From: a virus
IMG/VR virus record: IMGVR_UViG_2974684452_000001
Span: 1,828 to 65,827 of that record
Strand: one strand, 5' to 3'
DNA length: 64,000 nucleotides
Shown here: piece by piece, positions 2 to 4,286 of the stretch
How the letters are laid out: every line of letters begins with the position of its first letter
How positions within the stretch are numbered: position 1 is the stretch's first letter
Translations under genes and position numbers: made by a program
Notes under the pieces: model-generated
Told to the model about the DNA's origin: nothing
The model's input: the letters and a program-made list of their open reading frames with translations, nothing else
Database searches by the model: none

Positions 2-838
2 CGCATCGAAGCGGCCAGCCGCGACGTCGAACCGTGGGCCGACATCTTGGCTCGGGTGGCGCTTCCGCGCGACGACCGCACCTGGTTGATGACGCTCTAC
101 AACACCTACGACGACCTGCACTCGGCGTTTGCGTGCTACCGGCGCTGGCCGTCGATCGCGGCCTGGGCGGCGGCGGGCGACCGCGACGACGTGGCCCAGT
201 ACAACTGCACTCAGGAGCGCCGCAACCTGCGCGGTGGCCGGGTGATCAAGCGGTTCGCCAGCTACGCCGCCGTTTTGGCCGGGCGCACCGAGGAAAAGTG
301 GATGCGTGAGGTCTGCCAGTGGGACAACCCCGGTCGCAACTTCACCGCGCTGAGCGCACGGATGCGTGAGGTCTGGGGCGTCGGTCGCCAGAGCGCGTTC
401 GAGTGGGCGGAGTTCGCGGGCAAGGTGGTCAACCTGCCGGTCGACGCCGCCGACGGCCAGCTGTTCGAGAGCAGTGGCCCGCGCCGGTGCCTTGAGCGCA
501 TCTTCTGCCTCAACAGACCCACGCCCGCCGAACTCGACCACGCCGCGAACGTGTGCCGCGAGTGGATCGCTCAGGCCGGGGTGCCGCTGGCGTGGGTCGA
601 CTTCGAGACGATCATCTGCGACTACAACGTGATGCGCGACGGGCGGTACTACCCTGGCCGTCACCTGGCCGCGCTGCGCGAGGAGATCGACACTCTCCCC
701 AGCGAATCCGACCGGGCGCTGCTCAACGACGCCTGGGCGCGCTTCGTGCCGGAGCCGTGGGCGTCGATCGCGCCGGGCATCGACCCGGCGAAGATGCCGG
801 TCTACCGCAACACCGGGAGGATGCTGACGTGCCCGTAA
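2..838 (+). CDS. Amino-acid:DNA transferase-like (aGPT-Pplase2/ADDT-type) base-modification protein; 5' end cut by the window edge
   Basis: Frame is open from position 2 (RIEAASRDVEPWADILARV...). GRQSAFEWAEF, FETIICDY and YYPGRH resemble the HhH-glycosylase-like ADDT family as recalled. It sits next to a P-loop kinase. Confidence 0.65.
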   Translation, partial: RIEAASRDVEPWADILARVALPRDDRTWLMTLYNTYDDLHSAFACYRRWPSIAAWAAAGDRDDVAQYNCTQERRNLRGGRVIKRFASYAAVLAGRTEEKWMREVCQWDNPGRNFTALSARMREVWGVGRQSAFEWAEFAGKVVNLPVDAADGQLFESSGPRRCLERIFCLNRPTPAELDHAANVCREWIAQAGVPLAWVDFETIICDYNVMRDGRYYPGRHLAALREEIDTLPSESDRALLNDAWARFVPEPWASIAPGIDPAKMPVYRNTGRMLTCP

Positions 839-1932
839 GGACCAGTCTCGCTGCCGACGACGCCGCCGCGATCGCGCGTCTGCTCGGCCAGTACACCAAG
901 GCCCACAACGCGGGCGGGTTCGCTCACCCGCTGGCGTCGGAACTGCGCCAGCACCCCGAGTGGGTCCACTGGGAGCAGGTGGGCCGGGAGCAGGCCGTGG
1001 TCATCGCCAAGCAGCTGACCCGCGACAGCCGTCGCACCGACTTCACCGGCGCGGAGTTCGTCATCCCGAAGCACGCGCTGGTGGCGACGCACGTTGCCCG
1101 CACTGGCTATCTGGTGCCCGACCTCGCGCCGTTCGACTACGTGTTCGCCTACGCGACCGACGCGATGGTGTCGGAATCGCTGCGCGCACTGGGCAAGGAG
1201 ATCGTGGCGCACCGGGTCACCAGCGCCGCTGAGGTGATCAACGTCTGGGGTCCGGCGCGGGAGAAGGCCTTCTACCCGGCCTGGGACCGGGCCACCGTGG
1301 TCGACGTCGGCCTGATCGCGCCGTCGATGATCGAGATGCTGAGCAGCGAGATCGCCACCGTCACTGGCTGGGACGACGACTTCCCGTACTACTCCGACGG
1401 CGGCTGGTCGGCGGTCTGCCTCAAGGGCTTCTGGCCCGACCAGCCGGGCAAGGGCGTCAAGCCGAGCGAGATGCCGCGCAGCTGGAAGGCGAAGCACGCC
1501 GACGACCTGGGGCGGCGGGCGGAGTGGACCGTGCTCAGTCGCGAACTGCCGCTGCTGACGCGGTGGGTCCAGTCGATCGACAGCTGGCGCGACACCGAGC
1601 GCGTGCGCCTGCTCAAGATGAACGCCGGGTCGGCGCTGGGCCGACACACCGACATCACCGACCGCTTCGGCGGCACTCGCGACGGCCAGATCACGCGGTT
1701 CCATATCCCGCTGATCACCGACCCGGCAGTGGTGATGCACACCTGGGACTTCGACGGGGCGCGGCGCACGCACCACCTGCAGGCCGGGCACTGCTACTAC
1801 CTCGACGCGCGCAAGCCGCACGCCGTCGAAAACAACAGCGACGTCAACCGGGTCCACCTGGTGGTCGACGTGGTGACCGATGCGACCGTGCGCGACCAGA
1901 TCGCGACCGCATTCACCCGACCAACGCGGTAA
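829..1932 (+). CDS. Two-domain protein: unknown (possibly GNAT-like) N-terminus plus AspH-type Fe(II)/2-oxoglutarate oxygenase C-terminus
   Basis: GTG at 829 follows GGGAGG (815-820). HxD (LGRHTD), RFHIPL and distal H (KPHAVENNSDVNRVHLVVDV) form a typical cupin facial triad. Confidence 0.75.
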   Translation: MPVRTSLAADDAAAIARLLGQYTKAHNAGGFAHPLASELRQHPEWVHWEQVGREQAVVIAKQLTRDSRRTDFTGAEFVIPKHALVATHVARTGYLVPDLAPFDYVFAYATDAMVSESLRALGKEIVAHRVTSAAEVINVWGPAREKAFYPAWDRATVVDVGLIAPSMIEMLSSEIATVTGWDDDFPYYSDGGWSAVCLKGFWPDQPGKGVKPSEMPRSWKAKHADDLGRRAEWTVLSRELPLLTRWVQSIDSWRDTERVRLLKMNAGSALGRHTDITDRFGGTRDGQITRFHIPLITDPAVVMHTWDFDGARRTHHLQAGHCYYLDARKPHAVENNSDVNRVHLVVDVVTDATVRDQIATAFTRPTR

Positions 1933-1942
1933 AGTGCCGAGC

Positions 1943-2506
1943 ATGAACCCCCGCCTGATCTACCTGGTCGGCCAGCCTGGCGCTGGCAAGTCGACGCTGA
2001 TGGCTGACCTGACTGCCGAATACGATCGGGTGCCCGCGCACCCGCCGGAGTACCCGGTGGCCCACGATCAGCTGGTCAACCGCATCACCGGCGCGGTGAT
2101 CGGGGCGGAGATCGGCATCGTCCGTGAGGCTTTCAGCGGCACCGACGCGCTGCCCAGCGCCGTCATCGACAAGGCGGTGCCCTGGATCGGCACGCGCCCT
2201 TACCCGTTGCTGCTCGGCGAAGGTGCCCGGCTGGGCAACCGGCGCTTCATCCTCGCCGCCCTCAACGCCGGGTACGACGTCACGCTGGCGCTGGTCGACC
2301 ACGACCAGGCCGACGAGTGGCGCGCGGCGCGGGCGAAGGCGCTCAAGCGCACGCAGAACGAGTCGTGGGTCAAGGGGCGGCGCACCGCGTCGATCAACCT
2401 GTTCAACGAGATGCGCGAACTGAGCAAGACGCAGAGCGTGCGGGCGTGGGTCGGGTCGCCCGACAGCCTGCGCGAAGGCCTGAGCGAGATCATCCACGAT
2501 GGCTGA
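1943..2506 (+). CDS. P-loop nucleotide kinase, like those found in 5hmU DNA hypermodification loci
   Basis: Walker A GQPGAGKST; FSGTDAL, GEGARL and QNESWVKGRRT motifs; ATG 7 nt after TAAAGT. Confidence 0.75.
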   Translation: MNPRLIYLVGQPGAGKSTLMADLTAEYDRVPAHPPEYPVAHDQLVNRITGAVIGAEIGIVREAFSGTDALPSAVIDKAVPWIGTRPYPLLLGEGARLGNRRFILAALNAGYDVTLALVDHDQADEWRAARAKALKRTQNESWVKGRRTASINLFNEMRELSKTQSVRAWVGSPDSLREGLSEIIHDG

Positions 2507-4286
2507 CGCGCAGCCGCGCAAGGTGCGGATGCCGGACGACGACGGCACCCCGACCCCCGACGTCTGGACGGGCGACGGCCTGTTCGACACCGGCAAGGCC
2601 GCTGAGCTTTACGAGGCGGTCAAGCACTGGCCCGACGAGCAGAAGCGGGCCATGCTGTCGTCGCTGCGGTCGGCGGAGACCCGCGCGGCGATCAAGGTCA
2701 AGTACCGCCACGCCGCCGAGATCGCGGCAGCGACAATTCCCGGCTACAAGATCACGCCCGCACTCGATCTCATCGCCAACCGGATCGAGACCTGCATCCG
2801 CCGACCGGCGCGCAACTTGCTGATCAACATGCCGCCCCAGGAGGGCAAGAGCAGCCTCGCGGCGGTCTGGACCGTGATCCGCGCGCTGCAGCTGAACCCG
2901 AACCGCCGCATCATCCTCGCCACCTACGCCGACGCGCTGGCTGAGGAGCACAGCCGCACGGCCCGCGACATCATCATGCGCCACGGCACCGACGTCGTGG
3001 ATTCGGTGACGGGCCTGCCGGTCACCGACCAGATCGGCCTCAAGCTCAGCCCGAAGTCCAACAAGGTCTCGGCGTGGAAGGTCGAGGGCGGCAACGGCGG
3101 CTTGGTCGCGGTCGGCCTGGGAAGCTCGATCACCGGTCGCTCGGCTGACCTGTTCGTGATTGACGACCCGTTCAAGAACATGATGGAGGCCGACTCGGCG
3201 GCGCACCGCGCCAAGGTCTATGAGTGGTTCTCGTCGGTCGTGCTGACCCGTCTGTCGCCCGAGGCGTCCATCATCCTGATCCAGACGCGGTGGCACCCCG
3301 AAGACCTGGCCGGGAAGGTGCTCGCCGCCGAGGCTGAGTTGCCAAAGCAGCACCGTAGCTGGCACCACATCAACGTGCCCGCCATCGCCGAGGAGGGCAT
3401 CAACGACGCGCTCAATCGCCCGTTCGGCGTCCCGATGGAGTCAGCCCGCGACGGCGTGACCGACGACGGCGAGGTGGTGAAGCGCGACTTCCTGCGCACG
3501 AAGCGCCAGGTATCTGAGCGCACCTGGTACGCGCTCTACCAGGGCAGCCCGCGCAACCCGGCAGGCGGGCTGTTCCTTCGGTCGTGGTTCGAGCCGCGCC
3601 TGCCCGACGCGCCGACGCAGCCCGTCGCGGCCATCGTCGGCATCGACCCCGCCGACTCCGGCGACGGCGACGAAACCGGCATCATCGGCGGGTTCCTCAC
3701 CCGCACTGGCAAGGTCGTGCTCGCGGAGGACTGGTCCGGTCAGTTCACCCCCGACGAGTGGGCCAAACAGGCAGTGACGCTGGCGCTGCAGATGGGCGCG
3801 CGGGAGATCGCGATGGAGGCCTACGCCGCCGCGAACAGCTACCGCGACGCGCTGCGCCGGGCCTACCGCGACATGCACCGCGCCGTCGTGCGCAAGCAGT
3901 ACGAGGGCGCGATGCTGACCCCGATCGAACAGCGTTGTCTCCCTGACATTCCGCCGTTCACGATCTACAAGTGGCGGGCCGGGGCGAAGGTCGACAGCGT
4001 GGGCCGGGCGGCTCTGCTGCGCCAGGCGCTCGAAACAAAGACCTGCCAGCTGGTCGAGTACAACCTCGCGGTGTTCGAGGAGCAGGCGGCTGACTGGCAG
4101 GCCGGACAGCACCAGCCTGACCGGGTGTCGGCGGCGATCATCGCCCACGACCGCCTCGCTGCGCTCGGCAACGGCGGTATGGGCCTGTCCAGCCCGCCTG
4201 GTGGACCTGGTGGCGGGCCTGGGCCGGACGGGCGACGAGTGCCGCCTCCGCCCCCGGCGTGGATGCGGCGCACGATCCCCGGTTAG
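2499..4286 (+). CDS. terL: Terminase large subunit
   Basis: Walker A MPPQEGKS, Walker B LFVIDDP, IQTRWHPEDL coupling motif, nuclease GIDPAD...DETGII and QPDRVSA. Confidence 0.93.
   Translation: MADAQPRKVRMPDDDGTPTPDVWTGDGLFDTGKAAELYEAVKHWPDEQKRAMLSSLRSAETRAAIKVKYRHAAEIAAATIPGYKITPALDLIANRIETCIRRPARNLLINMPPQEGKSSLAAVWTVIRALQLNPNRRIILATYADALAEEHSRTARDIIMRHGTDVVDSVTGLPVTDQIGLKLSPKSNKVSAWKVEGGNGGLVAVGLGSSITGRSADLFVIDDPFKNMMEADSAAHRAKVYEWFSSVVLTRLSPEASIILIQTRWHPEDLAGKVLAAEAELPKQHRSWHHINVPAIAEEGINDALNRPFGVPMESARDGVTDDGEVVKRDFLRTKRQVSERTWYALYQGSPRNPAGGLFLRSWFEPRLPDAPTQPVAAIVGIDPADSGDGDETGIIGGFLTRTGKVVLAEDWSGQFTPDEWAKQAVTLALQMGAREIAMEAYAAANSYRDALRRAYRDMHRAVVRKQYEGAMLTPIEQRCLPDIPPFTIYKWRAGAKVDSVGRAALLRQALETKTCQLVEYNLAVFEEQAADWQAGQHQPDRVSAAIIAHDRLAALGNGGMGLSSPPGGPGGGPGPDGRRVPPPPPAWMRRTIPG

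Follow-up and report, generated by a model that had tools for sequence, protein, structure and literature searches.

Hypermodified bases protect phage DNA from restriction and CRISPR-type defences, and the enzymes that make them are a source of tools for DNA labelling and sequencing chemistry. For phages M6, ViI and PaMx11, the kinase, amino-acid:DNA transferase (AADT) and tailoring steps of thymidine hypermodification have been reconstituted, and in the characterised clusters the tailoring genes lie between those for AADT and kinase (PMC8989533). In M6 the order is gp51 AADT, gp52 pyridoxal phosphate (PLP) enzyme, gp53 radical S-adenosylmethionine (rSAM) enzyme and gp54 kinase; in PaMx11 it is gp46 AADT, gp47 flavin adenine dinucleotide (FAD) lyase, gp48 GNAT acetyltransferase and gp49 kinase (PMC8989533). 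The PaMx11 gp46–gp49 cluster makes 5-acetylaminomethyl-deoxyuridine (Lee et al. 2021, PMC8989533), its gp46 being an experimentally demonstrated glycine:DNA transferase (PMC8989533). The known toolkit for tailoring thymidine adducts comprises rSAM isomerases, PLP decarboxylases, FAD lyases and acetyltransferases. The subject here is a 64,000-nucleotide stretch (the window) of IMG/VR virus record IMGVR_UViG_2974684452_000001, covering bases 1828–65827 of a 71,552-bp genome with a GC content of about 69%. At its left end is an operon of this general kind, in which the tailoring position is taken by a two-domain Fe(II)/2-oxoglutarate (2OG) oxygenase related to AspH and proline hydroxylases. Its position, its fold and its co-variation with the transferase suggest that this AspH-like oxygenase probably oxidises an amino acid appended to thymine on DNA.

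Linkage of TET/JBP, aGPT-Pplase and kinase genes in mycobacteriophages was reportedly predicted by Iyer et al. in 2013 (Nucleic Acids Research, NAR). More recently, phage 5-methylpyrimidine oxygenases (5mYOX) of a ParB-associated subclass were found to oxidise thymine (T) to 5-hydroxymethyluracil (5hmU) on DNA once activated by their own ParB, and their genes consistently occur in linkage with those for P-loop kinases and AADTs, and often with terminases (PMC13229309). The window phage resembles the clade C1 clusters of that work (PNAS 2026, PMC13229309): a ParB-like gene stands directly before a TET/JBP-like gene, with a linked P-loop kinase and AADT, often a terminase, and no C5-methyltransferase. 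It differs in having an Asp_Arg_Hydrox-type partner, of which the main text of PMC13229309 makes no mention.

In actinobacteriophages, a five-gene thymidine hypermodification system has been noted in Rhodococcus phage Tonitrus (PMC11955845), and genes for ParB, a Tet-like protein, aGPT-Pplase2, 5hmU kinase and a fifth protein are already annotated both there and in Gordonia phage Wooper. This system, which is also found in the B5 mycobacteriophages Phelemich and Reprobate, has the same backbone and genome position as that of the window phage (ParB, TET-like, ADDT, kinase, terL), and its ParB, TET and kinase are orthologous to those of the window phage, at 53–72% identity. Its fifth gene, however, encodes a DAO-type FAD oxidoreductase, whereas the window phage has the AspH-like oxygenase and an ADDT of another clade (31% identity). 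PaMx11 gp46–gp49 offers a more distant parallel, with an ADDT-family transferase first, tailoring next and a P-loop 5hmU kinase last, all in post-replicative chemistry on 5hmU in DNA. On the other hand, PaMx11 obtains its 5hmU from a thymidylate-synthase-like deoxyuridine monophosphate (dUMP) hydroxymethylase, gp51, rather than from a ParB and TET/JBP pair, and its tailoring enzymes are an FAD lyase and a GNAT rather than a single two-domain Fe/2OG oxygenase. The ADDTs of the two phages are only about 20% identical, and the PaMx11 kinase falls outside Pfam Ploopntkinase3.

Position of the oxygenase gene

The AspH-like oxygenase (367 aa) is encoded by the fourth gene of the operon, at 829..1932 of the window on the plus strand. 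Its likely start is the GTG at window position 829, which has a GGGAGGA Shine-Dalgarno sequence ahead of it and gives a 10-nt overlap with the stop of the ADDT gene. The gene sits between those for ADDT and kinase. In Phelemich and Kozie the gene between ADDT and kinase encodes the DAO-type FAD oxidoreductase, while in Wooper and Tonitrus the homologous FAD oxidoreductase gene comes directly after the kinase. There is no DAO gene anywhere in the window's genome.

How general is this arrangement? The order (TET)-ADDT-AspH-kinase fits all 38 of the AspH-like loci examined (metagenomic, IMG/VR and prophage loci), as far as each extends. Most have a TET-like gene before ADDT; a few are without a TET match, and in one the TET follows the kinase. 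The order is kept across differing terminase and capsid backgrounds. A Kribbella prophage has it too, as does a distant module whose TET and ADDT proteins are highly divergent. A census by architecture, taken over the 80 IMG/VR loci closest to the TET of the window genome, gave TET-kinase in 26, TET alone in 17, TET-ADDT-FAD-kinase in 16 (plus three variants), TET-ADDT-kinase in nine, TET-ADDT-AspH-kinase in six, TET-ADDT in two and kinase-TET in one. FAD and AspH occurred together in none of these 80 loci (0/80), nor in any of the 38 AspH-like loci.

The transferase goes with the tailoring enzyme. Compared with the FAD-type relatives Phelemich and Wooper, the ParB, TET, kinase and TerL proteins are 53–81% identical, but ADDT only 31%. 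Compared with AspH-type loci, it is ADDT that is well conserved, at 50–62% identity, while TerL reaches at most 47%. In a maximum-likelihood tree, 24 AspH-linked ADDTs, including that of the window, fall in one clade with 99/98 support, and six further AspH-linked ADDTs form a second; both clades are separate from the FAD-linked ADDTs. These sequence comparisons indicate that ADDT co-varies with the tailoring enzyme.

Structure of the AspH-like oxygenase

Residues 230–347 of the oxygenase, in its C-terminal part, match Asp_Arg_Hydrox (PF05118) above the cut-off (E 1.5e-10). All 73 homologues compared keep the residues that bind the metal and 2OG (H273-x-D275...H331 and R341), which line up with the corresponding motifs (C-terminal His and Arg-His) of L-proline cis-4-hydroxylase. 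Since these four residues are invariant, the enzyme should be active. A single-sequence AlphaFold2 model was discarded (pLDDT 34) in favour of one built from the 73-sequence alignment, which is a confident two-domain structure (pLDDT 95.2, pTM 0.91). Its C-terminal domain, residues ~148–353, has the double-stranded beta-helix Fe(II)/2OG fold of the AspH/proline-hydroxylase clade. In Foldseek and profile searches the top matches are proline 3-hydroxylase and the cis-4-hydroxylase of free L-proline, the latter with E 4e-12, and with E 2.4e-4 by sequence profile; a beta-hydroxylase from a nucleoside-antibiotic pathway is also among the best structural matches. The nearest structures belong to enzymes that hydroxylate amino-acid carbons, and the neighbours in AlphaFold DB and the ESM Atlas are all Asp_Arg_Hydrox proteins.

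With AspH and the free-proline hydroxylases (PDB 5JQY/8RE5, 4P7W, 1E5R), the oxygenase shares the double-stranded beta-helix, the HxD...H iron triad and the 2OG-binding Arg. The identities are only 14–20%, however, and it differs in having no tetratricopeptide repeat (TPR) or Pro_3_hydrox_C domain, in its unique 147-aa N-terminal domain and in its DNA-modification context. AspH proper acts on an Asp/Asn residue in an EGF-like domain; for the window oxygenase the context argues for another substrate, so that it is best classed as a member of the superfamily clade rather than as an orthologue of AspH.

The N-terminal domain (residues ~1–147) gave no Pfam match in 40 members, no PDB profile match at E <=10 and no NCBIfam match, and its profile resembles neither the FAD proteins nor ADDT. 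In a profile search of 1.8 billion representatives it was found almost only at the N terminus of proteins with the same architecture. (Fold searches with the whole model are dominated by the C-terminal domain.) Two candidate identities found no support. Membership of the GNAT family was indicated by an Atlas feature score of 0.82 only, and hhalign to the PaMx11 gp48 GNAT gave 0.2% probability. Multi-stretch matches of the domain's profile to giant He_PIG immunoglobulin-repeat proteins seem to reflect a short LPxG/TG motif and were rejected as homology, since no member matches He_PIG in Pfam.

At least 235 full-length homologues of the oxygenase were found, many on phage contigs of 60–70 kb and one in a Kribbella prophage. 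A tblastn search of 50,697 GenBank phage records gave no match, in a set that possibly did not include the carrier's own record. One homologue (P0122, 690 aa, at L050:5265-7337) contains an intein-like insertion of ~336 aa, which starts with Cys and ends ...FTGN, followed by Ser. The insertion splits the invariant DDFPYY|SDGxW motif (residues 183–193 of the window oxygenase), and since it sits exactly inside this motif, the motif is likely to be functionally critical. The same locus also has a 584-aa TET-ADDT fusion and an HNH homing endonuclease between genes.

The operon and its likely source of 5hmU

The left end of the genome is a single coupled operon, encoding in order a ParB-like activator, a TET/JBP protein, ADDT, the AspH-like oxygenase, 5hmU kinase and TerL. 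Its reading frames are linked by overlaps or very short gaps, typical of translational coupling. The first two genes lie in the 1827 bases ahead of the window: the ParB-like gene at genome positions 1–852 (phrog_6392, E 8.9e-99) and, after a gap of 2 nt, the TET/JBP-type dioxygenase gene at 855–1787. The ADDT gene (genome 1784–2665, 293 aa) begins with a GTG 44 nt before the window, so that its 278 3' codons lie inside, at window 2..838 on the plus strand. After the oxygenase gene come those for the predicted kinase (window 1943..2506) and TerL (window 2499..4286), both also on the plus strand; the stop codon of the former (2504–2506) and the ATG of the latter (2499) overlap by 8 nt. TerL, the large terminase subunit, matches phrog_38 (E 7.8e-98) and Terminase_6N and is 81% identical to that of Phelemich.

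Much of this had been anticipated in a first-pass annotation made from the window alone. It described three tightly linked genes, the last overlapping terL by 8 nt, and the open reading frame positions bear this out; the family assignments that it proposed for profile checking were recovered as ADDT PF18724, Asp_Arg_Hydrox PF05118 and Ploopntkinase3 PF18751, and the HxD...H triad that it saw as intact is the one found invariant above. It also noted that the window holds no TET/JBP or thymidylate-synthase-like gene, which is correct, and that the window cuts the operon, as the ADDT start and the TET/JBP and ParB-like genes upstream confirm, one Tet_JBP-like gene thus lying just outside. Its broader proposal of a terL-coupled thymidine-hypermodification operon of the 5hmU kinase and AADT type gains support from the ADDT and kinase families and from the predicted ParB/TET source of 5hmU.

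The TET/JBP assignment draws on profile and context evidence. Against Pfam Tet_JBP the protein scores 17.7 bits, below the gathering score of 34.9 (19 bits in the genome scan, where it is the sole Tet_JBP match in the whole genome), and its homologues score 22–25 bits. Eight orthologues share, without exception, the HxD...H iron triad (H171-x-D173 and H221) and the distal arginine R236. The best PDB profile matches are Naegleria Tet, albeit weak ones (E 0.07). In hhalign the protein aligns with the product of the same-slot gene of the distant module L027 over 177 columns (probability 93.8%, E 1.8e-7), and that product is a canonical Tet_JBP protein scoring 87.7 bits in Pfam. No gene for a ThyA-like enzyme, ThyX or a C5-(cytosine) methyltransferase occurs in the 71.5-kb genome, so T is likely to be the substrate of oxidation, rather than dUMP or 5-methylcytosine. 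A ParB and TET/JBP pair is how other phages have been shown to make 5hmU on DNA (PMC13229309), which leaves no need for the AspH-like enzyme to form the hydroxymethyl handle. (In PHROG 6059 and in the RefSeq entries of many cluster B mycobacteriophages, this TET/JBP-like family is labelled "queuine tRNA-ribosyltransferase" or "DpdA-like", which from the sequences looks like a propagated misannotation.)

The transferase matches Pfam ADDT (PF18724, formerly aGPT-Pplase2) with an E value of 2.5e-12 and 47 bits, against a cut-off of 26. The characterised PaMx11 gp46 belongs to the same family, and the two are 20% identical over 273 aa (pairwise E 3e-5). The kinase matches Ploopntkinase3 (PF18751) over its full length (E 1.3e-71, positions 1–185 of 187), has an intact Walker A motif (GQPGAGKST) and is 65% identical to Phelemich gp5. 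Its homologues in Wooper carry the annotation "5-hmU DNA kinase", and there is weak similarity (E 2e-5) to PaMx11 gp49, an experimentally demonstrated kinase. It is thus predicted from its sequence to act on 5hmU DNA. The family goes under other labels as well: phrog_800 and RefSeq call it "terminase small subunit" and GenBank "adenylate kinase". The demonstrated 5hmU DNA kinase PaMx11 gp49 is likewise labelled as a small terminase subunit in RefSeq, and the PHROG label looks like a propagated misnomer.

Proposed pathway and alternative explanations

How might these enzymes work together? Homology with enzymes already characterised suggests the first three steps. Once the phage DNA has been replicated, ParB and TET together would oxidise its thymine to 5hmU, the kinase would phosphorylate its hydroxymethyl group, and ADDT would swap the phosphate for an amino acid. 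This amino acid is probably not glycine, as in PaMx11, since the ADDT belongs to a distinct clade. The AspH-like oxygenase would then oxidise the DNA-bound adduct, most likely by C-H hydroxylation of the side chain, given that the ADDT is of a different clade and that the closest folds belong to amino-acid C-hydroxylases. Hydroxylation of the carbon next to the nitrogen is a less likely chemistry, by which the adduct would be cleaved to 5-aminomethyl-deoxyuridine in the manner of the FAD lyase of the relatives. The first-pass annotation had mentioned tailoring of the attached group as one of two roles for the oxygenase, and it is this role that slot, fold and co-variation support best. The phage probably makes a DNA base so far undescribed. 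A more far-reaching version of this proposal is plausible, if somewhat less likely than not: the two-domain protein would be the first Asp_Arg_Hydrox-clade oxygenase to act on an amino acid attached to a DNA base, producing together with its own ADDT clade an uncatalogued hydroxylated aminoacyl-thymidine, and the N-terminal domain would recognise the modified base in duplex DNA.

Several observations weigh against oxidation of the DNA-bound adduct. The TET/JBP assignment is below the Pfam cut-off, the census was made with hidden Markov models built from few seed sequences, and an analysis of isoelectric points (family median ~7.2 for the oxygenase) shows no sign of DNA binding. Distant two-domain homologues of ~400 aa, with the same N-terminal domain and Asp_Arg_Hydrox, occur on two phage contigs (L048:6001-7203 and L049:6001-7194) without TET, ADDT or kinase within 6 kb. 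They adjoin a gene for a short PALP-type PLP enzyme, so the oxygenase fold is not exclusive to the TET-ADDT-kinase pathway; these contigs, which also carry a beta-clamp-like gene or an N6/N4 DNA methylase, may represent a different modification pathway using the same type of oxygenase. Lastly, the closest solved relatives include free-proline hydroxylases, so the enzyme could act before transfer. It would then hydroxylate a free amino acid, as the proline 3- and 4-hydroxylases at the top of the Foldseek and profile matches do, and its cognate ADDT would install the hydroxy-amino acid; co-variation with ADDT is equally expected if the transferase must accept an unusual amino acid. This order of events is nevertheless unlikely. 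The DNA-bound adduct is the substrate of the enzymes encoded between AADT and kinase in every characterised cluster (PMC8989533), and the conserved additional N-terminal domain, absent from free-amino-acid hydroxylases, may point to a macromolecular substrate. Another fairly improbable explanation, a special case of oxidation on DNA with a known product (the one predicted for the FAD-type relatives), is that the AspH-like enzyme simply replaces the FAD lyase. By hydroxylating the alpha carbon of an N-linked glycine or other amino acid, it would create a carbinolamine that collapses to 5-aminomethyl-deoxyuridine. N-dealkylation via hydroxylation is known from other 2OG oxygenases, AlkB and JmjC among them. 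AspH and FAD are mutually exclusive in all examined loci, with the AspH gene occupying the FAD slot of Phelemich and Kozie, and the FAD enzyme gp47 of PaMx11 cleaves N-alpha-glycyl-thymidine (N-alpha-GlyT) to 5-aminomethyl-deoxyuridine (5-NmdU) (PMC8989533). A replacement lyase working on the same glycine adduct would need no change of transferase, yet ADDT was swapped together with the oxygenase (31% versus 50–62% identity), and the structures that come closest hydroxylate side chains and are not N-dealkylases.

The other role put forward in the first-pass annotation, that of making the hydroxymethyl handle, did not survive inspection of the upstream genes, which revealed the ParB-like and TET/JBP pair. 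The operon is one for DNA modification, its Fe/2OG oxygenase is intact and no hydroxymethylase is encoded, so the enzyme could in principle oxidise thymine itself, or further oxidise 5hmU, on DNA. However, ParB and TET/JBP genes stand directly upstream, a TET-like gene precedes ADDT in most of the homologous loci, and a ParB/TET pair alone was sufficient for 5hmU in the phage systems tested (PMC13229309). Both the FAD-type and the tailoring-free relatives retain TET in the absence of AspH, and the fold is that of the AspH/proline-hydroxylase clade, not of TET/JBP or AlkB, all of which makes handle formation by this enzyme highly improbable. It is also hard to believe that the oxygenase is a mere passenger in the operon that modifies a phage or host protein. 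AspH and prolyl hydroxylases do act on proteins, but the gene for this enzyme keeps strictly to its place between those for ADDT and kinase in 38 loci, on unrelated phage backbones and in the Kribbella prophage, and the enzyme co-varies with ADDT.

Is the pathway new? The first-pass annotation had suspected a route not yet described. Its kind is in fact known, as the annotation of Wooper and Tonitrus (PMC11955845) makes clear, but the literature searched, in its main texts, contains no description of the AspH-like component. An Asp_Arg_Hydrox-type tailoring enzyme is absent from those of PMC8989533 and PMC13229309, and no paper in the set searched brings the relevant terms together. If oxidation of the adduct is what the enzyme does, an Fe/2OG oxygenase would bring C-H oxidation into the tailoring toolkit, and at least one natural DNA base would be new.

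The source genome and related loci

The closest relatives of the genome at the DNA level are the cluster B5 mycobacteriophages Phelemich, Reprobate and Acadian, with ~78% identity from the kinase gene rightwards. The window oxygenase is 100% identical, over all 367 residues, to a protein of Mycobacterium phage LilMcDreamy in the BFVD structure library. LilMcDreamy belongs to subcluster B12 and has a circularly permuted genome of 71,552 bp with 69.3% GC; it was isolated on M. smegmatis mc2155, and its nearest neighbour is Reprobate (B5) (PMC10793342). This host is a safe laboratory strain (BSL-1). ARAGORN found no tRNA or tmRNA genes in window positions 1–64000, consistent with the published table, which lists LilMcDreamy without tRNAs (PMC10793342). 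The window genome is almost certainly that of this cultured cluster B mycobacteriophage. Its nucleosides could thus be analysed directly by liquid chromatography–mass spectrometry (LC-MS), and the B5 relatives, which have the FAD version (Reprobate, Phelemich) or no tailoring enzyme (Acadian, with TET and kinase only) on a near-identical backbone, provide a natural comparison set for LC-MS and for assays of restriction and defence evasion.

Many cluster-B-like genomes (L052, L054, L063–L073 and others) have TET followed by the kinase only, with neither ADDT nor a tailoring gene. The end product of such loci is perhaps phosphorylated 5hmU, or plain 5hmU.

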